Shown piece after piece: positions 134-14,185 of a stretch of 64,000 bases of DNA. Under the pieces are notes generated by a model, which did not search any database, had not been told where the DNA came from, and was given only the letters and a program-made list of their open reading frames with translations. Every line of letters begins with the position of its first letter. The stretch's first letter is position 1. Position numbers and translations under genes: made by a program. Origin of the DNA: an uncultured Methanoregulaceae archaeon (lineage in GTDB: Archaea; Halobacteriota; Methanomicrobia; Methanomicrobiales; Methanospirillaceae); assembly GCA_963705255.1 (NCBI GenBank), contig OY970061.1:2048001-2112000 (forward strand). Reading direction: 5' to 3'.

Positions 134-793
134 TTACCTGCCGGCCTGTTTTTTCTTCGCAGCTTTTTTCTTCCTCTCCATGATGCTCTTGACCTTTTTC
201 AGCCTGAACAGGTCCTCCCGCTCCCGTTCCTCGATGGCATTCTTGATGTATTTTGCCTGGCTCTTCAGCTCCGGGATCAGGATCTGTTCAAGGGCATTCA
301 CCCTGCGCCGGTTCATCTGGATCTCCGCCCCGAGCCGTCTCATGGCCGTCTCCGTCTCTGCAAGTTTTATCAGGAGGTCGAGTTCTATCTCGTACCGCTC
401 GGCGGCCTCGTCGATCCTCGCGCTGGTCGAGATGATGTCATACCCCCTCTCGAGCATGGTCTTTGAGACCCGTTTCTTCTCGATGACCGGGACCGGCACT
501 CCCATGATATTTTTTCCGGTGATGTCGACGGTGATGGACCTCCGGGTTGCGAAGGTGGCGGATTTCAGGGTGACCGGATCATCGACCGCCTGGGCGATCA
601 GGAGCGCGAGGTCTGCTGCGCGGGAGACCTGCTCGAGTTCGTCCCGCGATTCGGAGACCGAATTGAGGATCTTGAAGAATTCCTGGATCAGCGCGTCCAT
701 CTTCTCCCTGAGGAGGTCCCTCCCCTGCTCGGCGAGTTTGATCTGGGCCTTTTTCCGGATCAGCTCCATCCTCGTGGGCTTCACCTGCTCCAT
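134..793 (-). CDS. atpD: A/V-type ATP synthase subunit D
   Basis: N-terminal PTRMEL motif, RRVNALEQILIP and EREREDLFRLKKVK; last gene of the ATPase operon. Confidence 0.95.
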   Translation of the reverse strand: MEQVKPTRMELIRKKAQIKLAEQGRDLLREKMDALIQEFFKILNSVSESRDELEQVSRAADLALLIAQAVDDPVTLKSATFATRRSITVDITGKNIMGVPVPVIEKKRVSKTMLERGYDIISTSARIDEAAERYEIELDLLIKLAETETAMRRLGAEIQMNRRRVNALEQILIPELKSQAKYIKNAIEEREREDLFRLKKVKSIMERKKKAAKKKQAGR

Positions 794-795
794 GG

Positions 796-2202
796 TCAGG
801 CTCCCGCGTTCTCTGCATGTGCCGGGTGGTATTTCGCTATGTGTTCCCGCTTGATCCGTTTCAGTTCGTCCTCCGGCAGGAGCGAGAACAGGTCCCAGGC
901 GATGGAAAGGGTCTTCTCAATGGACCGGTCTTCATCGCCCTGGGTGATGAACTGCCGTTCAAAGCTGTCCGCGAACTTCAGGTATTTTTTATCCAGGTCC
1001 GTGAGGGCCTCCTCCCCGACAATTGCCACGAGCCTGCGCAGGTCCCGCCCGTACGCGTACGAAGCATACAACTGGTCCGCAACGCCGCGGTGGTCTTCCC
1101 GGGTCTTCCCCGCGCCGATCCCCAGGTTCATGAGCCGGGAGAGGCAGGGCAGTGCATCGACCGGGGGGTCAGCGCCCCGGCGGAAGAGGTCCCGCGAGAG
1201 CACGATCTGCCCTTCCGTGATGTAGCCGGTCAGGTCGGGAACCGGGTGGGTGATGTCGTCATCCGGCATGGTCAGGATAGGGATCTGGGTGATGGAACCG
1301 GCCTTTCCTTTCAGCCTCCCGGCCCGCTCGTATACCGATGCAAGGTCCGTGTACATGTAGCCGGGATATCCTCTCCTGCCGGGCACTTCTTCCCGGGCTG
1401 TTGAAATTTCACGCAGCGCCTCGCAGTAATTGATCATATCGGTCAGTATCACCAGCACGTGGAGGTGGTGGTTGAACGCGAGATATTCGGCGACCGTGAG
1501 CCCGCACCGCGGAGCGGCGAGGCGCTCCACCGTAGGGTCGTCCGCAAGGTTCATGAAAAAGACCACGCGTTCGAGGGCCCCGGTTCTCTCGAAATCCTGC
1601 ATGAAGAACGAGGCCTCCTTGTGCGTGATGCCCATCGCGACAAACACGACGGCAAACCGCTCTCCCTCGCCGCGGACTTTTGCCTGGCGTGCGATCTGGG
1701 CCGCGAGCTTGTTGGCGGGAAGACCGGAGCCCGAGAAGATGGGCAGTTTCTGGCCGCGGACAAGCGTGTTGAGGCCGTCGATTGCAGACATGCCGGTCTG
1801 GATAAAGTCCGCCGGCTTGTCCCGGGCTGACGGGTTGATGGGGGTCCCGGCAATGTCGAGCACGGCTTCCGGGACGATGTCCGGGCCCCCGTCCCGGGCC
1901 TTCCCGACGCCACTGAACACCCGCCCCAGCATGTCGATGGAGACATTGATCCGGGCGGGCTCGCCGATGAACCGGACATTCGTGTTGAGCGTGTCGATCC
2001 CCCGGGTGCCTTCATATACCTGGATGACCGCGTGCTCTTCGGAGATGTCGAGGACCTGCCCGGTACGTTCCTCCCCGTCCTTTAAGGTTATCCTGACGAT
2101 CTCGCCGAACGATGCCCCGTGGACATTGCTGACAAATATCAGGGGGCCCGAGACGTACCGGATAGTCCGGTAATCCTTCGTGAGGAGGGAGTCCTGTTTC
2201 AT
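796..2202 (-). CDS. atpB: A/V-type ATP synthase subunit B
   Basis: [31 protein letters not shown] and [11 protein letters not shown] motifs. Confidence 0.97.
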
Positions 2203-3935
2203 TTTTCCACCTCAAGGGACATAAGTTTCTCCTCGATCTCGGTGAGCATGTTCCGGATGGCGTCCAGGTCCGACACTTCCTTCATCCGCCCGATGGTTGC
2301 CTTCAGCGGGAGCCCCTGGATCTGCCGCAGGGAGACACCGCGGGTCATCACCTCGTTCACTTTTGCATAATACACCATGATCACCTTGAGCATCAGGTAT
2401 TGTTTTTCAATAGGGCAGAAGGAATCCGTGTCGCTGTACGCGCTCTGCTGGAGGAAGTCCTCGCGGATCATCCGGGTCACTTCCAGGATGGCCTTCTCGC
2501 TGTCGGGGAGGGCGTCGGGGCCCACCAGCTGGACGATCTCCTGCAGTTCCACCTCCTTCTGGAGCAGGTACATGGCATTTTCCCGCATCTCCCTCCAGTC
2601 CCGTGCGACGTTATTGATATACCAGTCCCCGATACTGTCGAGATAGAGCGAGTAACTTTTTATCCAGTTGACCGAGGGGAAATGCCTGCGGTACGCAAGG
2701 TTCGTGTCCAGCGCCCAGAACGTGCCGACGACCCGCAGCGTGTTCTGCGTGATCGGCTCCGAGAAATCCCCGCCGGGTGGCGATACCGCACCCACGACCG
2801 TGATGGAGCCGTTCCGCTCCCCGGAACCCGTGCATACGACCCTGCCGGCCCGCTCGTAAAAGGCTGAGAGCCGGGTGGCAAGATATGCGGGGTAGCCTTC
2901 TTCTCCCGGCATCTCCTCGAGCCTCCCCGACACTTCACGCAGCGCCTCGCCCCACCGGGATGTGGAGTCGGCCATCAGTGCAACGTCATATCCCATGTCG
3001 CGGAAATATTCGGCTATCGTGATCCCGGTATAGATCGAGGCCTCCCGTGCAGCGACCGGCATGTTGGACGTGTTTGCAATGAGGATGGTCCGCTCTATCA
3101 GCGGCAGGCCGGTCCTCGGGTCTACCAGTTCCGGGAACTCGGCAAGCACGTCGGTCATCTCGTTGCCGCGTTCCCCGCACCCGATATAGACCACGATCTG
3201 CGTGTCCGACCATTTGGCAAGGGTCTGTTCGGAGACAGTCTTCCCGGTCCCGAAACCGCCCGGGATCATCGCGGTCCCGCCTTTGGTTACCGGGAATATG
3301 CAGTCGAACACCCGTTGCCCCGTGATCAGCGGGAGGACCGGGTCGAGCTTCTTCTGGTGCGGGCGGGGATCCGGACCGCCAGAGCTGCATCATGGAGAGC
3401 CGGGTGGTATTGTCCAGGGTGCAGACGATCTCCTCGACCGTGAAAGTGCCCGCCCTGATGTCGGTGACTTTCCCGGATATTTTGTGCGGGACGAGGATCC
3501 GGTGCTCGAAATGGAACTCCCTGACGGTCCCGATGATGTCGCCCTCGGCTACCGTGTCGCCGGTCCTGACTGCCGGGACGAAGTCCCATTTTTTCTCGCG
3601 GTCAAGCCCGGGTGCCGAGATACCCCGGGCAATAAAGTCCCCGCTTTTCTGGAGGAGGACGGGCAGCGGGCGCTGGACGCCGTCATAGATTGACGATAAA
3701 AGCCCGGGGCCGAGTTCCACGGAAAGAGGCTTTTCCGTGTTCTCTACCGTCTCCCCGATCGTGAGACCCGTCGTGTCCTCGTAGACCTGGATGACCGCTT
3801 CTTCCCCGTCAAGCCGGATGATCTCCCCCTGAGGGCCTCCCCGCCGACTTTTACCACGTCATACATCTTGGACCCTTTCATGCCCCGGGATGTGATGACG
3901 GGTCCGGAAATCCGTGAAATCGTGCCTGTTATCAT
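2199..3935 (-). CDS. atpA: A/V-type ATP synthase subunit A (split by about three single-base frameshifts near 3826 and 3362-3378, probably sequencing errors)
   Basis: ORF pieces join into one protein: [13 protein letters not shown]..., [19 protein letters not shown]..., GGFGTGKT (Walker A), [13 protein letters not shown]. Confidence 0.93.
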
Positions 3936-3939
3936 AGCT

Positions 3940-4260
3940 TCACCTCTTTAATACGATGTTATAGCCGATCGCCCTGCGCAGGAGCTGTTCGATGTACGTC
4001 CTCCGGTCAACCTCTTTCGACTTCGAAGGGATGGGAATGATGAGCGGGCGGTGCATCTTCTCGATCCGGTCCATCAGTTTCTCATCGAGAGAGAGCATGT
4101 ACTCCTCGTTCACTGCTACGATGCCGATGTCGTCTTTGTACAAAAGGGGCGGGATAATCTTTTTTGCCTCCTCGATTGACCCCGCCTCCAGGACCTCGAC
4201 GCCGGCCAGCCGGAACCCCGACGCCCGGTCACTGTCCGTAACGATGACGAATTTATACAT
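3940..4260 (-). CDS. atpF: A/V-type ATP synthase subunit F
   Basis: SGFRLAGV motif, C-terminal RRAIG, 106 aa, operon position. Confidence 0.9.
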   Translation of the reverse strand: MYKFVIVTDSDRASGFRLAGVEVLEAGSIEEAKKIIPPLLYKDDIGIVAVNEEYMLSLDEKLMDRIEKMHRPLIIPIPSKSKEVDRRTYIEQLLRRAIGYNIVLKR

Positions 4261-5302
4261 ACACGAGTTCCTCCTTCAGGTTCTCAAGGGGGAAATCTGC
4301 GGTCTTGCACCGCGAGATGATCCGGATATTGGTGATCTCGTTATATTTTGCCCAGAAATAGCCTATGAGCGAGGTCACGCTGAGCGGATCCCCCAGAAAA
4401 GAACCCACGCCTTTCTGGATCAGGGACTTTTCGAGCTGTTTCTCGATGACCGATATCTTCTCCGTGCGAAGGGCGCTCTCGGGAATGCTGTTCAGGAACC
4501 GGTACCGGGTGGACTCAAGTGCCGAAAGGACATCCCTGATCGTTTTCAGGGAGAGGAGGGCGCTCAGGTCCTCGGGACCCAATTCCTTCCCCCCGTCAAT
4601 CAGGAATGTTTCAGCCTCCTCCGGATCGATGCGGTCCCGTATCATCCGCAGGATCGTCTTGATATTGATGACATCGATCTCAAGGGATATGAGGTCCCGG
4701 ATGATCGTGTTGTTGTAGGACGGTTTTTTTACTGAGACCAGAGCGTCCTGATAATAATACTTGTCAAGTTCGCATTCAAGAGTGGCAAGATTTTCGGTCT
4801 TCAGAAAGTCCGGGTACTTCTCCGTGAGGGGTTTTGCATAGGAGATACCCCATGTCGCAAGCAGGTCAATGACCGCCCGTACATCGGGCTGCCTGACGAG
4901 TTCCGTCAGGGTCGCCTCGTCGAGCTCCCCCGCGGGCACAAGACAATCGAGGATCTCCTCGTTCGTGATATGGATATTCTTCCCGCGGATGATCGTCTTG
5001 ATGTTCTGGACGTCCCAGCGGTGCAGGAATATCCTGATGTACCGCTCTGCCTCTTCTTCATGGGCGAAAGCAAGGATCTTCCGGAATGTCCGGGTGAAAT
5101 TTATCCGAAGGGCGTATTCAATGCAGAGTACCCCGGAGTACCTGCCTTTTGCCTCGGTAATCTCGTCCAGGTACGGGGTTTTTTCCAGCCTGGTTATCAG
5201 GGAAGGGATATCCGGCTGGAGGATGAGGTCATCGAGTTCCCGGTGGTCGAGCAGCCGGCTCCTCATCCCCCTCATCCGTGCATTGATATATCCCCAGTCC
5301 AT
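4253..5302 (-). CDS. atpC: A/V-type ATP synthase subunit C
   Basis: YINARMRGMRSRLL N-terminus, RWDVQNIKTIIR, EITNIRII; GGAGG RBS before ATG 5302. Confidence 0.9.
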   Translation of the reverse strand: MDWGYINARMRGMRSRLLDHRELDDLILQPDIPSLITRLEKTPYLDEITEAKGRYSGVLCIEYALRINFTRTFRKILAFAHEEEAERYIRIFLHRWDVQNIKTIIRGKNIHITNEEILDCLVPAGELDEATLTELVRQPDVRAVIDLLATWGISYAKPLTEKYPDFLKTENLATLECELDKYYYQDALVSVKKPSYNNTIIRDLISLEIDVINIKTILRMIRDRIDPEEAETFLIDGGKELGPEDLSALLSLKTIRDVLSALESTRYRFLNSIPESALRTEKISVIEKQLEKSLIQKGVGSFLGDPLSVTSLIGYFWAKYNEITNIRIISRCKTADFPLENLKEELVYV

Positions 5303-5303
5303 C

Positions 5304-5888
5304 TCAACCTCCGAACAGGACCGAATAGATCTCGTGTCTCTTTCGCTCTTGTGCCCGTTCAAGCCGGGACTCGATCGTATTGGAGATCACCACGGCTCCG
5401 TCAGGAGAACTCACCACGAGGCCTCCTGCACACTCCAGATCGGTGAATACCTCACAGGAGATCCGCATGGCAGAGAGCGTCTTTCGCAGGAGGTCCTCGT
5501 CCCGTTTGTCGATATGGACCGAAAACCGGTCCTCACCCACAGCACCGATGGCCTCATGTACCAGTTTTTCAAATATCGCCGGGTATCCCGGATGCTCCCG
5601 CACCGCCAAAAGCTGCTGCCCGGCCTCATGAAAAGCTGAAGAAAAGATCTTCTCCTTGATAGTTATGATCAGTTCCTTGTTCTCCCCTTTTGTGAGATAG
5701 AGCAGTTTGTTCTTTTCAACTTCCGCAGACTTTTCTGCACCTGACAGGTACGACTGCTGTATCTCGTCCGCCTGCTTCTTTGTCTGCGCCTTGATCTCAT
5801 CGATCGCGACGCGTGCCTTTTCCCGGAGCTCCCGCTCCCGTTCCGTGGCACTCTCCTCTACCGACTTCAAAAGATTTTCATACGCCAT
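5304..5888 (-). CDS. atpE: A/V-type ATP synthase subunit E
   Basis: Charged helical N-terminus and GGLVV...ISNTIESRLE C-terminus. Confidence 0.88.
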   Translation of the reverse strand: MAYENLLKSVEESATERERELREKARVAIDEIKAQTKKQADEIQQSYLSGAEKSAEVEKNKLLYLTKGENKELIITIKEKIFSSAFHEAGQQLLAVREHPGYPAIFEKLVHEAIGAVGEDRFSVHIDKRDEDLLRKTLSAMRISCEVFTDLECAGGLVVSSPDGAVVISNTIESRLERAQERKRHEIYSVLFGG

Positions 5889-6028
5889 AGGCTTTCCCGT
5901 CCTGTCTGAAGGTCCCGGAATCACCAGCTGTAAGAACAGGATACTCCCGGTTGTTCCCGGTACGGGAGTTCGGTGACGATCCGTGGAGACGGGAACGAAG
6001 TGAAACTACTGCACCTCTGGTTCTAGGA

Positions 6029-6253
6029 TTACTTGACCATCAGGATGATCATTGATGCGATCACAAACCCCAGAATCACCAGCGTTTCCGGGATAGCTTC
6101 GATGATGATGATAGACCCCGCGGTCTCGGGTTTTTCTGCAATCGTCCCTGCTCCGGCTGCACCAATCCTCGACTGTGCCCACCCTGTTCCAATCGCACCC
6201 GCGGAAAAGGCTAATGCCGCCCCGATGGGTACTTCCCAGCCTGCCACATCCAC
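6029..6253 (-). CDS. atpK: A/V-type ATP synthase proteolipid subunit K (c), single hairpin
   Basis: 74 aa, two hydrophobic helices, AQSRIGAA and IPETLVI with the ion-binding Glu; GGAGG RBS. Confidence 0.92.
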   Translation of the reverse strand: MDVAGWEVPIGAALAFSAGAIGTGWAQSRIGAAGAGTIAEKPETAGSIIIIEAIPETLVILGFVIASMIILMVK

Positions 6254-6348
6254 ACCTCCTAATGATAGAACCTAACAGATTGCAGCTATATTAAACTATT
6301 GAGAATAGTTCCGGAAAAATTCCGGGTGTCCGGATCCTTTCAACACGG

Positions 6349-6684
6349 TTATTCAACAGGAGGACGCCCGAGAATCGCGTCCAGTGCCGTGAACGTTTCA
6401 GGCGTCAGGCAGTGTCCGGATCGTATATCTCTTCCAGCCGTGATAAGTAAATGTATCTCTTCTTTGGTAAGTTTTGCAAAACTGTACGTATCCCATCGTT
6501 CCTGGTCAACATTGATCCAGACCTCGCCCAGAACTTCCCTCAATGCTGCATAATCTTCATCCGAGCACGATCTCCATCCGGAATCCTTCGCGCGGCGAAT
6601 CCTTTCGAGGGCATGCTCTACTGCTTTTTCCTTCCGGACCTGGAAACGCCTCCTGCCAAGAGTATCATCGGCTACGCGGGACAT
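6349..6684 (-). CDS. Hypothetical helical protein, paralog of 6860..7189
   Basis: Ungapped similarity to the divergent neighbour (GRR..Q..KEK.VE...IR.....W...W.N..Q..WD). Confidence 0.75.
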   Translation of the reverse strand: MSRVADDTLGRRRFQVRKEKAVEHALERIRRAKDSGWRSCSDEDYAALREVLGEVWINVDQERWDTYSFAKLTKEEIHLLITAGRDIRSGHCLTPETFTALDAILGRPPVE

Positions 6685-6859
6685 ACGACTATTTTGTGGG
6701 AATTATACAAGTACCGGTTTAAATTGCTTGTGCCGGTTGTATCCGTCTTTTTTGGATCTCCGGATTTTTCCCCGGGTTCAATCTCTCACCCCGGCCACAA
6801 GGAATATAGGCAGGGAGCGGGATTGTTTCATCATCTGAACACATGAGGGGGGGAATAAA

Positions 6860-7189
6860 ATGCCGGACGTGACAAAGACCGAGATCGGGAGAAGAATGTA
6901 CCAGCTCCACAAGGAAAAGAGCGTGGAGAAGATCATTGAGAAGATACGTGATAATATCGGACATGACTGGAAGTCATTCACCGGGGACGAGATCCACCTG
7001 CTGGAGCGGCTCCTGAGTGCAGCATGGGCAAACATCGAACAGTCAAACTGGGACAAAATACCGTTTTCCCGGATGTCAAAGGATGATGTCCGGCGGGTAC
7101 TCGATGTCGGGAAATACACTGATCTTGATAAAACACCGCAGCATGCTTTGGTGGCGGAGGTGGAAAAGGTCCTGCTCTCGGTAAAATGA
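6860..7189 (+). CDS. Hypothetical helical protein, paralog of 6349..6684
   Basis: Purine-rich RBS, T-tract after the stop, similarity to the divergent neighbour. Confidence 0.78.
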   Translation: MPDVTKTEIGRRMYQLHKEKSVEKIIEKIRDNIGHDWKSFTGDEIHLLERLLSAAWANIEQSNWDKIPFSRMSKDDVRRVLDVGKYTDLDKTPQHALVAEVEKVLLSVK

Positions 7190-7270
7190 TCCTCTTTTTT
7201 CCATATATCATGCTGCCGGGAGATTTTTCAGAATTCCCGGTGAAACGGGAGTGCCGGTCCTCTGCTGCAT

Positions 7271-7380
7271 TCAGCCAATCTCAAACCGGTCGATCACGCT
7301 CTGGGTCTCTGCTGCCGCCCTCTTCAGTTCCTCAATCCGGTCCGCGACCGTCTCCTCATGATGTTTCCGCTTTGCAGGAG
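7271..7380 (-). pseudogene. Possible C-terminal remnant of a methyl-accepting chemotaxis protein
   Basis: Reading frame ...EETVADRIEELKRAAAETQSVIDRFEIG* resembles an MCP C-terminus; no intact start. Confidence 0.25.
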
Positions 7381-7476
7381 CCGGGTTGATCGCGCCATGG
7401 GGTGCCCCGATGGTGCCATGGTCTTCTCACTCCAGACCCGTCCGGCCACCGCACCAGCACCGCCGGGACGACAATC

Positions 7477-7768
7477 AAATTCGAAGGGTGATTGATGTCA
7501 CCCTTCTCATCCTCGAATTTCGCTTTGCTCAATTCTTCGGAGATCGAAGAATTCTCGCGAATTCGGTCGAAGAACTTCGTTCAGGAGAAGATTCTTCTCC
7601 TGTCTCAAGTCCGATGACTTTCGACAAGAGGGATTTTTCAAATCCCTCTGCTTCATCCTTAAGGGATGAAGCATTCTGATGACCCTCAGCATTCTCCTCC
7701 TCCAGGTCGGAGAGGTTTATCAAAACCTCGATGAGGAGAAGGGAGGTGTAAGCCGACCTTCGACTTTC
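7477..7768. repeat. Modular hairpin repeat, copy A
   Basis: Chain of stems (GAAGGGTGA/TCACCCTTC, AATTCTTCG/CGAAGAATT, AGAGGGATTT/AAATCCCTCT, GCTTCATCC/GGATGAAGC, GAGGTTT/AAACCTC); blocks shared with copies at 12745 and 23807. Confidence 0.85.
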
Positions 7769-7981
7769 TTATGGACCTATCGGACGTCGGAGAAACCTGA
7801 TGGTTTCTTCTTTTCCTTCAGGTCTGATGACCTGTCGGACAAAAAAAACGACCGGCATGTACGCCGAACCCCTGAACACGACCAGCACAATGTCCAGCAC
7901 CATCCCGAGGGCCAGCCCTGCAGCGATGCCGACGATGAGGCGCCTGATCGTGCGGTCTTCGAAAATGGTGGAGTCCGTCAT
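7769..7981 (-). CDS. Small membrane protein (70 aa)
   Basis: ATG preceded by AAGGA; hydrophobic segment LIVGIAAGLALGMVLDIVLVVF. Confidence 0.55.
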   Translation of the reverse strand: MTDSTIFEDRTIRRLIVGIAAGLALGMVLDIVLVVFRGSAYMPVVFFVRQVIRPEGKEETIRFLRRPIGP

Positions 7982-8101
7982 GGTTATTTCCTTACTTATC
8001 TTGCGTCATGCTGGTTCTAGAAATTTTTTGCGGGGTTCAGCTTTGTTATTTCCATCACATCCAGGCACCGGACGGTGCCAGTGCACGGGTCATCATGCAT
8101 C

Positions 8102-8335
8102 TCAGCCGTCCCCGCTCCCGAACACGTCCGGGAAATATTCCCGGACCCGGCGGCGTTCCCGCTCGTTTAGCTCGCGGAGTTCCGGGCCGGCGAGCCCTAT
8201 GATGAATGCCGCCGCATCATCGCGGCACCTGAATATGCGGATCACCGGCCCGTCTCCCGCCGCGATCTGGTACCGGAGGTGAAAACAGGTCTCCTTTGCG
8301 GGCACCGGGCGGGCGCGGGAGTATTGTGCTGCCAT
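8102..8335 (-). CDS. Small hypothetical protein (77 aa)
   Basis: ATG ORF divergent from the XRE gene, plausible composition. Confidence 0.45.
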   Translation of the reverse strand: MAAQYSRARPVPAKETCFHLRYQIAAGDGPVIRIFRCRDDAAAFIIGLAGPELRELNERERRRVREYFPDVFGSGDG

Positions 8336-8511
8336 TATCCCGTATACCGGTGACTGGTGAGGTTTTCCCGGAACGACAGGGTACCACGTTCAGACCAAGC
8401 ATCTATAGCCGGGGGTGTCCGATCGGGATTTTCTTTGGGGTCCGGGGTTTGACGAATTTGATTCACCAGGCACCAAGGAATGTGTTGGCGGGCGGGGAGG
8501 ATAAATTTGTC

Positions 8512-8541
8512 GACTATAGTCTGCGATAGGCATTAGCCTAT
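8512..8541. promoter_or_regulatory. Palindromic operator pair upstream of the XRE gene
   Basis: GACTATAGTC (8512-8521) and ATAGGC-atta-GCCTAT (8526-8541), about 30-55 bp before the start. Confidence 0.55.
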
Positions 8542-8568
8542 TTTCAACTGAATCTCATTTGAGTGAAA

Positions 8569-8832
8569 ATGCACGAGGAAGAAATTTTTGGCAAGATGCT
8601 GCAGGAAGAGCGGAAAGCCAAAAAAATTTCCCAGGAGAAACTTGCAAAACTCGCCGGCCTCGACCGGACCTTCATCAGCCTCATCGAGAACGGAAAACGG
8701 AGCCCGACATTTTCTACTATTTTGAAGATCTGTTCAGTTCTCGAGATCGCTCCTTCTGAACTATTCTCGATTTACGAGAAGAAGGATCCGGATTACAGGG
8801 CGAAAAAAGGTGGGAAGCGTGAGAGGTTTTGA
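8569..8832 (+). CDS. XRE-family HTH regulator, restriction-modification controller (C protein)-like
   Basis: SQEKLAKLAGLDRTFISLIENGKRSPT helix-turn-helix signature. Confidence 0.9.
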   Translation: MHEEEIFGKMLQEERKAKKISQEKLAKLAGLDRTFISLIENGKRSPTFSTILKICSVLEIAPSELFSIYEKKDPDYRAKKGGKRERF

Positions 8833-8983
8833 CGCTCAATGGGGCTGGTCCGGCACCATTCACGATATTCTCCGATTGAATAAACCGCACTGGCTCGCAT
8901 CCATGAATGTAGCAGAACCTCTTTAATAAAAAATGCAACCATTTATCGTTTTCAGATAATAAAAGAGAAGCAGTGAGCCTGTC

Positions 8984-9430
8984 GTGAAGATATACCTGGA
9001 CGTATGCTGCCTCTGCCGGCCTTTCGATAACCATCATGAGACCAGGATACGGTTGGAGACGGAGGCAATTCTTACGATCCTGAAACGCTGTTCCCTCGAT
9101 TGGGAACTGGTCACGAGTACCGCAGTGCTGTACGAGGTTGGCCTCATCGGGGATCCGGTAAGAAGATCCCATGTCATGAGGCTGACGAGTCGCGCCCGAA
9201 AGACGATAACTGTTGATGAAGCCCTGTTGTTGCGGGCAGAAGAGATCGAAAAGGATGGAATCATGGGAATGGATGCCATTCATATTGCGTGTGCTGAGAG
9301 AGCCGGTGCGGTGTTCCTGACAACGGATGACGAGGTGATAAGGATTATGAAGAAGCATACCCCAGATATATCCATACGGGTCGATAACCCGCTGCGCTGG
9401 CTGATGGAGTTGAACCATGACGGAGAGTAA
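8984..9430 (+). CDS. PIN-domain (VapC-like) toxin
   Basis: IYLDVCC..RPFD, MDAIHIACA and FLTTDD acidic PIN motifs. Confidence 0.9.
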   Translation: MKIYLDVCCLCRPFDNHHETRIRLETEAILTILKRCSLDWELVTSTAVLYEVGLIGDPVRRSHVMRLTSRARKTITVDEALLLRAEEIEKDGIMGMDAIHIACAERAGAVFLTTDDEVIRIMKKHTPDISIRVDNPLRWLMELNHDGE

Positions 9431-9623
9431 GACCATTGCCCAGATCCAGAGTGAAGGGTACGATGCCCTGGTAAATGCTCTTGGACCGGAGGATGCCGTC
9501 CGGTTTATCCGGAGTTTCGATCCCGGGAGTGGCGATTATACAAAAGAGCGGAAGAAAACGTTTAAGAAAAAGACGGCAAAGCAGATCGGGAAAGAGATCC
9601 TTGAGCTGCAGAAGACGATCTGA
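9417..9623 (+). CDS. Small partner protein (putative antitoxin) of the PIN toxin
   Basis: Overlaps the PIN gene; ALGPEDAVRFIRSFDPGSGDYTKER is typical of PIN-associated small proteins. Confidence 0.75.
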   Translation: MTESKTIAQIQSEGYDALVNALGPEDAVRFIRSFDPGSGDYTKERKKTFKKKTAKQIGKEILELQKTI

Positions 9624-9840
9624 CTCTATTTTCACTTCTCTATCGTGTCGATCTCCGCAATGAACTCCATCAGCCGTTCGAGTTCCGGCCCGGACCATCG
9701 TTGTTTTTACTCCATCCCGTTCGACCACCGCACTAGTACCGCCAGGACCACGATGAGCACGAAGTCGAAGACTAGGATTACCAAACTAATTCCGGATACT
9801 TTCATAGTATACCGGTAAGCGGATTTCGGTATCCTCCACT

Positions 9841-9909
9841 TAACGTTTCTAACGCGATCGTCTACCGGTCAGGGGTCCGGTAGAGAGTTGCGTTAGAATC
9901 GTTATATAT
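9841..9909. promoter_or_regulatory. 28-bp-arm imperfect inverted repeat abutting a TATA-like box
   Basis: Arms 9841-9868 and 9877-9904 are 23/28 complementary; TTATATAT at 9902-9909. Confidence 0.6.
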
Positions 9910-10260
9910 CGCGTAACGAAATCCCCATTCGTGGACAGCCGGGGGTTGTCCCGAAAAGAAATGATGGGTTCACCAGGCGACGAACTTCGTTGAACCCGGT
10001 CCGCCCGCAGGCATGTGATCATTATCGTACATTCTTATGAGGATTTTCCCGTGCCCGGGTTGACAGCAAGGGAAGTGATAGCATAGACTCCACATACGGA
10101 AAGCAGAACAAAATGGCGGTATCCGGCAGGATACCGTCCTGGTTAACGAAGGAGAGCGGCCACTTACACCTTACCGGGGATGTACTCCGGGGGCAGGGAT
10201 TCCCGGCAGGGGTATCCGGTCAGCCTGCAGGAAAAAACCGGAAGCGGAGGCGGGCACAGG

Positions 10261-10530
10261 ATGCCGAAGAGTAAATCCGTGACTGAAGGCGGTATTCCGC
10301 TCTATCTCCTGCCTCAGGCAATCGCACGGCAGATCACCAGGATCGGCAACTCAGTGTACCGCATCAGCGTGAAACGGACGCACTGGCATTATTACAACAT
10401 ATCCGTCAGGACAAAATCCCTGCCAAAGGAGCTTGCCCCGGCACGGGTTATCCAACGTGCTTCCCCGCAGGAGAGGGAACCGGACAATCATTATCCTGTC
10501 ATCCAGGAGGATAAACGGTGTACGGTATGA
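10261..10530 (+). CDS. Basic hypothetical protein (89 aa)
   Basis: ATG ORF whose stop overlaps the next start (ATGA). Confidence 0.6.
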   Translation: MPKSKSVTEGGIPLYLLPQAIARQITRIGNSVYRISVKRTHWHYYNISVRTKSLPKELAPARVIQRASPQEREPDNHYPVIQEDKRCTV

Positions 10531-10916
10531 GCCGGGGACCACACCCGGGAAGGACGCTCGCCGTTGCCATCCCGATCGCAGAAATGCGGGGGACTGTCCA
10601 TATCGTCCGGCAGGCCCGCGGGAGCCTGTATGATTTCGTGATCTCGACTGCGGTCCCGGTCGCGTTTGTCCGCGTGAAGTATACGGACTGGATTCTCATG
10701 ACGCTCCCGGAGGCAGAAGCATACTACCGTGATGTGATCAATGGCCTCCGTGCCATTGCATCAACAGAGAATGTTTCGCGTGAACTCTGGCTGCGTTCCC
10801 GGCATGGGACCTGGCGGTTCTTCCGGGTTGGCGAGAACGGTCCCGTTGAGCTCTCACGGAACGGCATGGTATTCAATACACCCGGTAAGGAAAAAGTCAA
10901 ATCTCGTCAGGTATAG
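10527..10916 (+). CDS. Hjc-like PD-(D/E)XK-fold protein with an atypical active site
   Basis: IVRQARGS-LYD(36)FVI...FVR(49)VK(51)...GTWRFFRV pattern parallels archaeal Holliday junction resolvase motifs. Confidence 0.55.
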   Translation: MSRGPHPGRTLAVAIPIAEMRGTVHIVRQARGSLYDFVISTAVPVAFVRVKYTDWILMTLPEAEAYYRDVINGLRAIASTENVSRELWLRSRHGTWRFFRVGENGPVELSRNGMVFNTPGKEKVKSRQV

Positions 10917-11344
10917 GGAAGTGAGGAAGAAGGGATCTCCCCTCTTTTACCTCTCTTCTGATGGGGGGGATCCTGATCCTCTTTTGGGGGCACCTCCCAA
11001 ATCTCCCCTATACGGGCTCCGATTGGCCATTTTTCCGGATCCAGAGGAGGTATTTCGTCAAAATGAGACATTATTTCGCTAAGATTTGCTCATTTTCACG
11101 TCAGTAATCCAGAGACGCTATTTGGGTGTATTTGGAAGGCGAAAAACAGCTTGGATCGGCCTTCAGGCCAGGAGCGCCGGGAGGATGGTTAATGGGGCTT
11201 TTCAATTACGATCCCATTTTTGCGAAACCCTCCGGCAGATTTCCTGCCACGGATTATCTCCAAATGCCAGCAAAACCCTCCGTTTTGCCCTCTGAAAATT
11301 TATTCAGCCAAGCCCATCTGCTCATAAAACCCATACTGATATGT

Positions 11345-11515
11345 CCAAAGGAGTTCTGCAGAACCCCGTGGACGAGAAGAATGACGAAGTCATTCTTCAC
11401 TGTCAAAGGGGCCCTGGAGACACCAAAAGAAAACGAGGTTCGGTGAACCTTCGAGAGGTCGAAGAAATGTTTCACATTTCTTCTCCTCTTCGAGGTTCGA
11501 ATCGAACCTCTCAGA
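11345..11515. repeat. Modular hairpin repeat, copy B (leader of 11538 gene)
   Basis: GAAGAATGAC-gaa-GTCATTCTTC, GAAGAAATGT-ttc-ACATTTCTTC, GAGGTTCG-aat-CGAACCTC; 11479-11500 is the exact reverse complement of 23858-23879. Confidence 0.85.
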
Positions 11516-11537
11516 AACAAAAGGAGGAACCAAAAAC

Positions 11538-12041
11538 ATGGCAGATTTCGTACAGAAAACAACCGTAAAGACAGCGGTTCGCATCCTCGCGAACCCGATA
11601 GCAGACGCAGCGGCGTTCAACACGATCGTCCAGTCGGTCATCACGACCAACCCGTTTGCATGCACAGCCTATGAGACCGCCGGCGTCAGCCACCAGCCGG
11701 TAGAGAAGACCAAGGAGTCCTACGTGGCGAAGATCGTGTACCAGGATTCCGACGCGAAGACCGTCGGGACCGACTCCGGCAGGTTCAGCTCCATCGCCGG
11801 GTTCAATGCCGGCGCCACGGCACTCCTCGGGAATGCAGCCCTCACCGCAGCCCACGGGGGCACCCCGGCCCGGGACACGGCACACGAGACCTACTCGGCA
11901 ACCCTGAAGTGTCACGACGCGAACGGGGAGATCTACATGGTCACATTCGGCCGGCAGAGTGTGAGCCTCACCTCGTACTCGGACGATGCGATCCGGACCA
12001 AGGTCGATACCTGGGCCGACTCGGTGGGGGCCCTGGCATAA
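11538..12041 (+). CDS. Uncharacterised 167-aa Ala/Thr-rich protein with an internal duplication
   Basis: Strong AAGGAGG RBS, host-like codon usage, two similar halves (AAAFN..ESYVAKIVYQD / AGFN..ETYSATLKCHD). Confidence 0.85.
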   Translation: MADFVQKTTVKTAVRILANPIADAAAFNTIVQSVITTNPFACTAYETAGVSHQPVEKTKESYVAKIVYQDSDAKTVGTDSGRFSSIAGFNAGATALLGNAALTAAHGGTPARDTAHETYSATLKCHDANGEIYMVTFGRQSVSLTSYSDDAIRTKVDTWADSVGALA

Positions 12042-12064
12042 CGTGTTCTGGGCGTGAAGTCGCC

Positions 12065-12094
12065 AAAGGGGGTGACCAGCGGTCACCTCCCTTT
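12065..12094 (+). terminator. Intercistronic hairpin (attenuator or RNA-stabilising element)
   Basis: AAAGGGGGTGACC-agc-GGTCACCTCCCTTT just after the 12041 stop. Confidence 0.5.
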
Positions 12095-12127
12095 CTGGCC
12101 CGTCCATCCTATCACGGAGGCAAAACC

Positions 12128-12292
12128 ATGGAAACTGAAATTCTGGGATTGCTGCTCGGGGCCGTCCTCCCGCTCTATCCCCTGCTGTTCGCCATCTACC
12201 AGAAGACCGGCAGGTATGACGAGATCGTCGAGGAGTTCAAAAGACTCCGGGACGAGCACGAGCATTACCGGGAGGCGCATCATGGGGGATGA
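12128..12292 (+). CDS. Small membrane-anchored protein (54 aa; TM plus charged helix)
   Basis: GGAGG RBS; METEILGLLLGAVLPLYPLLFAIY followed by a coiled-coil-like tail; overlaps the next gene. Confidence 0.7.
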   Translation: METEILGLLLGAVLPLYPLLFAIYQKTGRYDEIVEEFKRLRDEHEHYREAHHGG

Positions 12293-12746
12293 GATCGCAC
12301 CGGTCGCAACCGTGACCGGCCTGTACCGGGGCACCTTCAGCGGCCTCGAACCGCTCACGAAGGACACCCCGCTCACGCTCGACGAGGTTCGGCGCAACCC
12401 GGTTTTCTACGAGCTGGAACTGCACCCGGAGCAAGAGAAGGCGAACCTGATCATCGATGTGATCTATGACAACATGTCGCCGCTGCGGCTGCAGGACCTG
12501 ATGCGGGGAACGGATCTCCCGCGGGGCGTCCGGTTCTGGCCGGACTGGTTCGAGATCCCGCCCTACCGGGAGATGCGCGATATTGACGGCCGCAGGGTCT
12601 ACCCGCGCTCGCCGGGCATCCACACGGTCCGTATCCGGACCGCGAAGCGGAAACTGGGAAATGTCCGGGACTTCAGCCCGGCAAACGGCGGGTACACGAG
12701 TCCGGTGTTTGAGATTACCATAGTCGCGGACAGGAACAACGTTTGA
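12282..12746 (+). CDS. Uncharacterised 154-aa beta/Pro-rich protein
   Basis: GGAGG RBS before ATG 12282, host-like codon usage. Confidence 0.75.
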   Translation: MGDEIAPVATVTGLYRGTFSGLEPLTKDTPLTLDEVRRNPVFYELELHPEQEKANLIIDVIYDNMSPLRLQDLMRGTDLPRGVRFWPDWFEIPPYREMRDIDGRRVYPRSPGIHTVRIRTAKRKLGNVRDFSPANGGYTSPVFEITIVADRNNV

Positions 12747-12870
12747 GAATGTTGAGGGTCATCAGACCCGAAACAGGAGAATGTCGAGAGTCATCAGATT
12801 TGAGACATGAGAAGACCGAAGGTCTTCGAATGAACGAAGTTCTTCGACTGAATTGAAAGTCATCACATCC
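12745..12870. repeat. Modular hairpin repeat, copy C (inverted relative to copy A)
   Basis: Three colinear blocks match the reverse complement of copy A at 21/22, 30/34 and 23/24 nt. Confidence 0.85.
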
Positions 12871-13021
12871 GGGCAACCCTCTTCAGGAGGGAGGACGATG
12901 TTTGAGAACGAGCTGCAGGCCCCGGCCGCCGTCTGCGGTTCCAGGCTCCTGCCCGGGATTATTTTTTTCACCTGCCGCTCCGCGATGACTGGTTCGGGAC
13001 TTTGACGGGATCAAACCCACC

Positions 13022-14185
13022 CTACTCCGTCGCCACCTTCACGCACTCCTCGATCGTCCCGATCCGGGCCACCGCAGCACACATGTCCGGGACGTACGCG
13101 AGCGCCTTGCCGCTGTTCACCATGATCGCCTCGTACTGCTCCATGACCGGTGAGACCACCATGCAGGTGTCCGCAAAGACCCGGGCCCCGCTCTTCTCGA
13201 TAGAGTCGGCAACCCGCTGGCTGGCCTCGATGACGCCCTGCGCAGCAAAGACGTAGAGCGGCATCGTGACCAGTTTTCCCTTCAGGAGCCGGGCGATCTC
13301 TTCCAGTTCTTCAGGGGAGCAGTGGGGGCACCCGACCGCGACCGCATCGACCGGGATCTCTTTGAACAGGTGCCGGATCTCACCGGATTCCACGGCGATA
13401 GTCTCAAGGCCGGTGAGATCGAAGGGCACCTTCACCGCCTCGGGCGTGATGCCCTCCACATGGTAGAGCGCCACGGCCCCGGTCGCCGCCATCGCCGCCC
13501 CGAGGGCCTTGAGCTGGTCGCGGTCCGGGTTTATCCCTGAGAAGAACGGGATGCGATTGCCTGCCAGTTTTCCCGCATGGTAGCCAAGCGCCCCGAAATG
13601 TGCGATGGACCAGTCACGGGTATCGGCCTGCACCCGGATGACCAGCTGCGGCTTCCGGTTTTTTGCAAGGTGAAGGCCGTAGCAGGGGGTCTTCCCGACC
13701 AGTGCGGCGGCAAGGGCGCCGGGGCCCCCTTCCCGGTTCGTCCGGGCACCGATGACCGAGTTCGCGTAGCTGACCGCGGACGACTCCGACCATGCGAGGT
13801 GGTCGCCAAAGCTCGTCTCGTGCAGGTAGTAGGGCGTGCAGGTGCATTCGAGGCCGATGCCGAGCCGCTCGTAGGCAGCGACCACGGCCTGCTGCTTCTG
13901 CGCAAAGTCCTCGTCCACGCCCATCTCCTGCCAGCGCCCGCGGGGCATCCCTATCGGGTTCAGCACGGCCGGGACCACGGCTTTTGCGTCGAGCGAGTTG
14001 AGCCACTGGAGGCCGTACTCGCCGATCGTCTTGTAGGACGCGCCGCTCACCTGTGCGCTCCGGATCCTGACCAGCCGTTCCGCACCGAAGACCTTCCCCA
14101 GCGCGACGAGGAGCTCCAGCATCCTCTGCCGGGTCTCGCCCTCTTCTCCGGCAAGGACCCGTTCGTCCTCAGGTTCGAGCTGCAT
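13022..14185 (-). CDS. Aconitase X large subunit (probable phosphomevalonate dehydratase large subunit)
   Basis: SGASYKTIG, CTCTPY, AWSESSA, GARTNREG and GCPHCS motifs; adjacent to ubiD/ubiX. Confidence 0.88.
   Translation of the reverse strand: MQLEPEDERVLAGEEGETRQRMLELLVALGKVFGAERLVRIRSAQVSGASYKTIGEYGLQWLNSLDAKAVVPAVLNPIGMPRGRWQEMGVDEDFAQKQQAVVAAYERLGIGLECTCTPYYLHETSFGDHLAWSESSAVSYANSVIGARTNREGGPGALAAALVGKTPCYGLHLAKNRKPQLVIRVQADTRDWSIAHFGALGYHAGKLAGNRIPFFSGINPDRDQLKALGAAMAATGAVALYHVEGITPEAVKVPFDLTGLETIAVESGEIRHLFKEIPVDAVAVGCPHCSPEELEEIARLLKGKLVTMPLYVFAAQGVIEASQRVADSIEKSGARVFADTCMVVSPVMEQYEAIMVNSGKALAYVPDMCAAVARIGTIEECVKVATE

Follow-up and report, generated by a model that had tools for sequence, protein, structure and literature searches.

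A multi-copy protein family of Methanomicrobiales and its candidate small membrane partners in a decayed Methanoregula operon

Introduction

Three co-directional open reading frames (ORFs), here called p1, p2 and p3, lie on the + strand at 11538-12746 of the 64,000-nucleotide stretch of archaeal DNA analyzed in this work (the window; G000:C1:2048001-2112000), which is part of a 2.60-Mb single-contig genome. We show that they form a decayed copy of a Methanoregula-specific operon, p1-p2-p3-p4, from which p4 has been lost here, and that p1 belongs to an unnamed multi-copy protein family restricted to the order Methanomicrobiales. With a probability of roughly 0.4, we propose from sequence comparisons that p1 is native, soluble and well expressed and that it works together with small membrane partners. 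The genus is given as Methanoregula throughout, the label that the sources of the closest protein matches attach to them (Methanoregula sp.).

Among the major methane producers of peat and wetlands are the Methanomicrobiales, Methanoregula included, and much of their lineage-specific gene content is unannotated. In one study, 26 of the 62 Methanomicrobiales signature clusters are hypothetical (PMC2686161). The cassette had been singled out in an original prediction, made by a model from the letters of the sequence, which regarded it as a complete three-gene unit for a self-assembling structural protein, enclosed by hairpins that its products might recognize.

Results

The first gene, p1 (11538..12041, + strand), encodes an acidic alpha/beta protein of 167 aa that is rich in Ala, Thr, Val and Ser (Ala 16.8%, Thr 12.6%, Val 8.4%; isoelectric point 5.7), and the sequence AAGGAGG stands at 11521-11527, 10 nt upstream of its ATG, so that the length, composition and strong ribosome-binding site originally described for it are all correct. 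The product of p2 (12128..12292, + strand) has 54 aa, a single membrane helix at its N-terminus and a charged helix at its C-terminus, in keeping with the anchor-like membrane protein that had been predicted; the gene has its ATG at 12128 rather than 12129 and overlaps p3 (12282..12746, + strand) by 11 nt. The third gene encodes a highly conserved, genus-specific cytoplasmic protein of 154 aa, predicted to be beta-rich and modeled here as a beta-sandwich, and its stop codon runs, as noted earlier, directly into a hairpin repeat starting at 12745. By inspection, GGAGG-type sites are also present upstream of p2 and p3. Judged by their median ratios of nonsynonymous to synonymous substitution rates against 18-19 orthologous loci (0.27 for p1, 0.21 for p2 and 0.20 for p3), all three are real genes evolving under purifying selection; mean column identity is 82% in the p2 alignment (A3) and 75% in that of p3 (A2). 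Public collections contain called proteins corresponding to each of the three products, in every case under the name 'hypothetical'.

The p1 family is large. A word-indexed protein search yielded 1496 candidates, of which 1305 have E <= 1e-3, and among the 120 matches listed nearly all are 167 aa long and unnamed; an exhaustive search of representatives gave 414 clusters (50% identity), including 33 with E below 1e-30. When a profile built from a 35-sequence alignment (A1) was used, p1 was matched in 143 of the 151 genomes of the class, usually in several copies (1-16 per genome), and a phylum-wide draw found it in 25 of 27 genomes from the order's six families and in none of 173 genomes from 20 other families of the phylum. 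The family is vertically inherited, multi-copy and restricted to Methanomicrobiales, and the multiple copies of 'MADF...' proteins in this order, mentioned in the original prediction, are confirmed. This genome carries six copies (100, 99, 65, 56, 52 and 42% identical to the window copy), together with one 30-residue fragment. The 65%-identical paralogue (genome 201466-201967, locus L077) has a frameshift close to its C-terminus, and its neighbors are NikR and the nickel-cobalt transport genes CbiM/CbiQ on one side and a complete type I restriction-modification operon on the other. A search for fusions or longer forms of p1 of at least 294 aa found none, which is weak evidence.

Neither in this genome nor in the order as a whole are most p1 genes accompanied by p2-p3. 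Across the A1 alignment P39 and W159 are invariant and F4, R15, N38, Y45, G77, C125, R139, A160, D161 and L166 nearly so, while Cys42 is present in most members. In a tree of 49 p1 sequences, the 17 cassette-linked copies group with the 'core' p1 of other families and apart from a clade of 16 solo-only copies (support 100/96); the cassette label needs five changes on this tree and does not mark one clean clade. Three distant homologues (P0125, P0126 and P0134) have N-terminal extensions that end in a lipoprotein-like Ser-Gly-Cys motif, hinting, if the gene starts are taken as called, at surface-anchored versions of the p1 fold.

Within the genus, the order of the three genes is conserved. The p2 and p3 genes are adjacent in all 19 foreign loci, and p1 lies upstream of them in 18, the remaining locus (L012) having no p1 within 1.3 kb. 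Both p2 and p3 occur in this genus only: 30 of its 36 genomes have p3, which is often present in 2-7 copies, as against none of 24 genomes of five sister families. The p3 protein search returned 821 proteins, those listed being 75-100% identical. The three genes are thus real and linked, as predicted, but they are not the complete unit: in 17-kb loci, p3 is followed, with overlapping stop and start codons, by p4, a polytopic membrane protein of ~197 aa that has no Pfam match. Of 20 loci, 16 have a recognizable p4, which in L036 and L045 is broken into pieces. Because the genes overlap, p2-p4 are taken to be translationally coupled. Together, the single-pass p2, the cytoplasmic beta-sandwich p3 and the polytopic p4 look like a small membrane-bound set.

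In the window, a remnant of p4 (12898..13005, + strand) retains ~24 conserved N-terminal codons before it is truncated. It sits behind an inserted 150-bp dispersed hairpin repeat (copy C, 12745..12897, unstranded, repeat family D3) that carries the p3/p4 junction duplicated over 11-17 bp on each side (12736-12749 and 12895-12908; imperfect, with ~14/17 positions matching), and the junction of p3 stop and p4 start is uninterrupted in L042, L039 and L040. With the p4 protein of G020 as query, no p4 match was found in this genome beyond the window remnant. A second copy of the cassette at 2.469 Mb is 96.7% identical to window 9880-12044 and 92% identical to 12155-12727; it shows the same p4 truncation and has, in addition, a repeat-rich insert of 540 bp between p1 and p2.

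In other families, p1 is accompanied by a different membrane protein. A small ORF, q81 (loci L083-L112, L049-L051 and L072-L076), was first seen divergent from single-copy p1 genes of these families. It encodes an unannotated, multi-copy protein of ~80 aa that has no Pfam match, with a coiled-coil-like N-terminal part and a Gly-rich C-terminal membrane helix, and would be tail-anchored. q81 is present in 54 of the 151 genomes of the class (23/25 in family f5, 9/9 in f3, 16/17 in f4, 5/19 in f6 and 1/3 in f2) and in none of the 77 genomes of this genome's own family. Of the 30 best q81 loci, 27 have p1 no more than 1 kb away and divergent in every case, with a gap of 102-322 nt in 23. Among solo p1 genes of this genome's family, 4 of 30 loci have some divergent hydrophobic ORF, none of which resembles q81. 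Homology between p2 and q81 was considered and rejected (hhalign probability 0.1%). Two unrelated genes, in different lineages, thus each link p1 with a small bitopic membrane protein, and it is mainly on this that the membrane-partner reading of p1 rests.

The gap between p1 and p2 holds a conserved stem-loop (12062..12099, + strand) of 13 bp, as originally described, which folds better than expected (z = -2.4) and is kept in 11 of 11 short spacers of related genomes; of its 22 pairs, 5 show a compensatory double change in one sequence. Most short spacers carry a run of four to five T on the descending arm, which is weak in the window copy (only TTTC). The predicted layout of a first gene with a strong ribosome-binding site, a stem-loop with a U-run and coupled small genes is supported, and the stem-loop fits partial termination or processing that would favor p1.

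The hairpins that flank the cassette are a different matter. The 5' leader of p1 (11335..11537, + strand) is structured, as had been noted, and made up largely of dispersed hairpin repeats (copy B); the segment 11335-11540 has a folding energy of -82.5 kcal/mol (z = -7.2), which 0 of 200 shuffles equaled. Small hairpins strung together make up copy C (z = -2.6). Repeats of these kinds occur in this genome at 33 loci (C type), 22 loci (B core, 11470-11520) and 32 loci (A type). Of 18 foreign cassettes, only 2, both of close relatives, have them inside or close by; the leaders of orthologous cassettes are short, different and mostly without the window repeat. Because they are so rare in foreign cassettes, the flanking hairpins are insertions that do not belong to the system, and their sequence distribution identifies them as dispersed repeats resembling miniature inverted-repeat transposable elements (MITEs) which have inserted into the leader and at the p3/p4 junction. 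The claim that they enclose the cassette as part of it falls, and recognition of them by its proteins is unlikely, given 22-33 loci genome-wide and so few foreign cassettes that carry them. A scan of 6000-13500 against Rfam gave two chance-level matches only, far below the gathering scores.

By a rough codon-adaptation index, p1 ranks at the 94th percentile of long ORFs, p3 at the 97th and a neighboring PIN-domain gene at the 13th. Neither 50,697 phage records nor 72,556 plasmid records contain a match to p1, and a pattern-limited scan of IMG/VR viral contigs found no relatives of p1 or p3. Codon usage and these absences point to p1 and p3 being native rather than foreign.

AlphaFold2 on the A1 alignment gave a model of p1 with a predicted local distance difference test score (pLDDT) of 94.1 and a predicted template-modeling score (pTM) of 0.83. 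It is an alpha/beta structure in which a unit of one helix plus three strands occurs twice. An internal two-fold repeat had been predicted from the sequence: a profile-profile alignment of residues 17-84 with 80-148 recovers the very register proposed (P 5.9e-4) and the model repeats the unit, but the alignment probability is only 29%, so that the repeat is plausible and not proven. The model is confident yet has no clear structural relative: Foldseek returned nothing at E <= 0.001 in PDB or BFVD, and the best Z against 48,161 chains in VIA-align, 7.5, equals the background stated for that tool. Its top rows were CYTH tunnel enzymes and TBP-like, KA1 and AdoMetDC sandwiches, and no capsid, tube or ssDNA-binding/OB-type fold appeared among the top 50. 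p3 was modeled as a beta-sandwich (pLDDT 87.8), for which fold searches found generic Ig-like matches only, the best being a Wzt carbohydrate-binding domain (E 8.9e-4, TM-score 0.47; Z 7.5).

These results bear on the original proposal that p1 is an abundant self-assembling subunit of a shell, filament or coat, with p2 as its anchor and p3 as an accessory protein. Much of the gene's appearance suits such a role, including the strong ribosome-binding site, structured leader and well-adapted codons, the Ala/Thr/Val/Ser-rich product whose relatives keep a fixed length of 167 aa, the many paralogues and the attenuator-like hairpin after the first gene; the lipoprotein-like motif of P0125, P0126 and P0134 also suggests that the fold can work at the surface. 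The fold searches, however, found no counterpart at E <= 0.001 in PDB or BFVD, and an acidic protein such as p1 is an unlikely nucleic-acid coat. A signal peptide is missing from most members, the phage and plasmid records and viral contigs searched yielded no relatives, and the hairpins proposed as recognition targets are generic repeats. We regard a structural subunit as quite unlikely, and the shell, filament or coat reading received no support from the structure comparisons.

Searches for known families were uniformly negative. Pfam gave no match for p1, p2 or p3, and only scattered matches (E >= 0.0067) when each member of the A1 alignment was scanned; PHROG gave none for p1 or p3, NCBIfam none for p1 or p2 (the two scanned), and PADLOC no family for p1, p2, p3, p4 or the neighboring genes u89 and u132. 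Among PDB sequences the A1 profile had one chance match (E 0.28), and the ESM Atlas offered no lead for p1 (best score 0.75) and only unnamed archaeal clusters for p3. No description of the p1 family was found in the literature on Methanoregula or Methanoculleus hypothetical proteins or on Methanomicrobiales signatures; the supplements of PMC2686161, outside this scope, might list p1 by locus tag. The novelty of the p1 system is accordingly assigned by exclusion only, no known family or system having been matched.

No consistent neighbor gene was found across 6 cassette loci, 6 loci of this genome and 30 q81 loci. Cassettes lie near regulators, redox or detoxification genes and type I restriction genes, with FMN reductase, nitroreductase, MarR or HxlR genes near several of them; the p1 paralogues of this genome lie near NikR/CbiMQ, nitroreductase, Pst/KaiC and GNAT genes, and p1/q81 modules near MNT/HepT, Orc1/Cdc6, Fic, DUF4258, a methylase and many unknowns. 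Type I restriction genes occur near three p1 loci only: L030, locus C of this genome and L050 (an N6 methylase-like ORF).

This flexible-genome flavor, with the variable copy number and the many fragments, keeps alive a conflict-system reading, whether toxin-antitoxin-like, abortive-infection or exclusion, in which q81 or p2-p4 would be membrane-active effectors, p1 in excess would neutralize or sense them, and solo p1 genes would be orphan neutralizers. Copy numbers of 1-16 per genome, pseudogenized p1 and q81 fragments that are sometimes clustered, and a gene layout favoring p1 over the membrane genes speak for such a module; the loci are often at contig ends or in variable regions with PIN, MNT/HepT, Fic, DUF4258, orphan Orc1/Cdc6, DNA methylase and type I restriction genes, and the window region has lower GC content, repeats and a PIN pair. 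Unlike patchy, cross-phylum defense genes, however, p1 is near-universal in one order and was not found outside it, which speaks for vertical descent; p1 and p3 are well adapted in codon usage, unlike their island neighbors, no PADLOC model matched, a divergent gene pair is unusual for toxin-antitoxin modules, and no defense neighbor recurs across the 6 annotated cassette loci and 5 own loci. We consider a conflict module rather unlikely on this balance.

The same neighborhoods can be read another way, with p1 as a stand-alone small-molecule- or metal-binding protein or enzyme whose adjacency to p2-p4 and q81 reflects co-regulation or history. The near-invariant polar residues, including Cys125, and the frequent Cys42 would suit this, as would the monocistronic state of most copies, the position of one paralogue beside NikR and CbiM/CbiQ and another beside a nitroreductase, the redox and regulator genes near several cassettes, and the CYTH/triphosphate-tunnel enzymes that head the weak fold matches by two methods. 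The neighbors nevertheless vary from locus to locus, the CYTH likeness is poor, and the divergent p1/q81 pairs (27/30 loci) and the p1-p2-p3 order (18/19 loci) are too regular for chance. We find this reading doubtful, about as much as that of a structural subunit.

Several further features of the region were recorded. Upstream of the cassette, u89 (10261-10530) and u132 (10518-10916) form an overlapping two-gene module that is co-duplicated with p1 at 2.468 Mb and that precedes the cassette in 6-8 of 20 loci. This genome has ~12 diverged copies of u132 and 4 of u89, and the GC content at third codon positions (GC3) is lower in this pair (0.63-0.65). Neither gene has a Pfam or PHROG match, and the pair might represent a small module of a selfish or toxin-antitoxin-like kind. 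Another toxin-antitoxin-like pair consists of an ORF with a PIN domain (8984-9430; Pfam E 1.4e-6) and an overlapping ORF of 68 aa (9417-9623); a second copy of it lies near 2.458 Mb (49-55% identical). Window 4000-11500 has a GC content of 0.49-0.56, against 0.60-0.65 in the flanks, and further dispersed repeat families lie at 10990-11170 and 7400-7720 (11 and 32 loci in this genome).

At the start of the window, a set of ATPase genes in the order D, B, A, F, C, E (134-5924, minus strand) is a second copy: near 1.85 Mb (1.846-1.851 Mb) there are a paralogous stretch, with 68% DNA identity, and a full subunit I. Immediately ahead of the window (2.047-2.048 Mb), the other strand carries a subunit-I-like gene. 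The A subunit of this A-type ATPase (2199-3720, minus strand) is apparently split into overlapping ORFs in different frames (2986-3720 and 2199-3311), which, with the 89.5% completeness of this single-contig genome, suggests assembly indel errors or real frameshifts.

Discussion

Taken as a soluble protein with small membrane partners, p1 might act at the cytoplasmic membrane face through small bitopic proteins. In Methanoregula the partner would be p2, with p3 and p4. Its place would be taken in four to five other families by q81, an unrelated coiled-coil protein with a tail anchor, whose gene is divergent from p1. The conserved stem-loop with its U-run after p1 could let p1 exceed p2-p4 in amount, and near-invariant Cys125, Arg15, Arg139, Asn38, Tyr45 and Asp161 suggest a ligand- or partner-binding site, not a building block.

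A number of observations weigh against this reading. Five of the six p1 copies of this genome lie in four unrelated contexts without a membrane partner; p1 is therefore able to act on its own, and its association with p2-p4 could be an addition specific to the genus. In both copies here, p1-p3 are intact without p4, and p4 is lost or split in L029, L030, L036 and L045, so the proposed membrane complex is not obligatory as a whole. The p1 and q81 modules are often found among toxin-antitoxin, Orc1/Cdc6, methylase and Fic genes, which fits a conflict system equally well. Moreover, the reference set of the codon index is crude and contaminated by shadow ORFs, and the index largely tracks GC3; compensatory changes in the spacer hairpin are few (covariation term +0.19); and the binding-site idea draws on a 35-sequence alignment without coordinates.

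A bolder extension of the membrane-partner reading would make p1 and its partners (q81 in most families, p2-p3-p4 in Methanoregula) an unrecognized two-part membrane module of Methanomicrobiales, in which an excess of soluble protein controls or neutralizes a membrane-active partner, serving either as a new conflict or defense system or as a stand-in for a phage-shock-type membrane-stress response. We consider this rather unlikely, on a level with the conflict module above. PspA is reported as a signature exclusive to Methanosarcinales (PMC2686161).

What is now defined is a protein family of more than a thousand sequences, with a confident model lacking a clear structural relative, and two independent, strongly conserved partnerships of that family with small membrane proteins. 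Placing the hairpins among mobile repeats removes a misleading cue and documents the break-up of an operon by such repeats.

Comparison with known systems sharpens these points. The CYTH or triphosphate tunnel metalloenzymes (5a65, 7ns8, 5a61) resemble p1 in size (160-200 aa) and in their all-antiparallel beta structure with flanking helices, and they were the top match in both Foldseek (E 4.6e-3) and VIA-align (Z 7.5), scores that lie at the tool-stated background. The superposition on their eight-stranded antiparallel beta tunnel is very poor, however, with a TM-score of 0.27-0.37, a root-mean-square deviation (rmsd) of 9.9 A over 123 residues and an identity of 7-14%. CYTH enzymes carry an N-terminal acidic-x-acidic-x-lysine motif and conserved basic tunnel residues. 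This motif is absent from the first strand of p1 (residues 11-16) and from the A1 alignment, and p1, unlike CYTH proteins, has no charged tunnel residues, its only near-invariant basic residues being R15 and R139. The two-layer sandwiches of the TBP-like, KA1 and AdoMetDC type (6m1u, 5wi2, 2iii, 1vjh) share with p1 a sheet packed by helices on one face, and its plausible internal duplication can be counted as a further likeness (Z 6.4-7.3, rmsd ~3 A over 80-94 residues). The alignment covers no more than about half of p1, though, there is no sequence signal and the matched families are functionally unrelated, which indicates, at the level of the models, a common arrangement and not kinship.

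In archaellin, pilin and gas-vesicle gvpA operons, the gene for an abundant subunit comes first and is followed by a partial terminator and minor accessory genes. The cassette is similar in its strong first ribosome-binding site, its stem-loop with a U-run and its overlapping small genes, but differs in having no signal peptide, no homology to such subunits and no assembly ATPase or peptidase nearby; most p1 genes, unlike those of such operons, are also monocistronic. The flanking hairpins are best compared with the MITE-like and repetitive extragenic palindromic (REP)-like dispersed hairpin repeats of prokaryotes, which include the Correia and REPIN types. They differ from these in being modular strings of small hairpins of varying make-up, with no Rfam match, and resemble them in being short, non-coding and strongly folded, in occurring at 22-33 loci and in having been inserted with a duplication of the junction.

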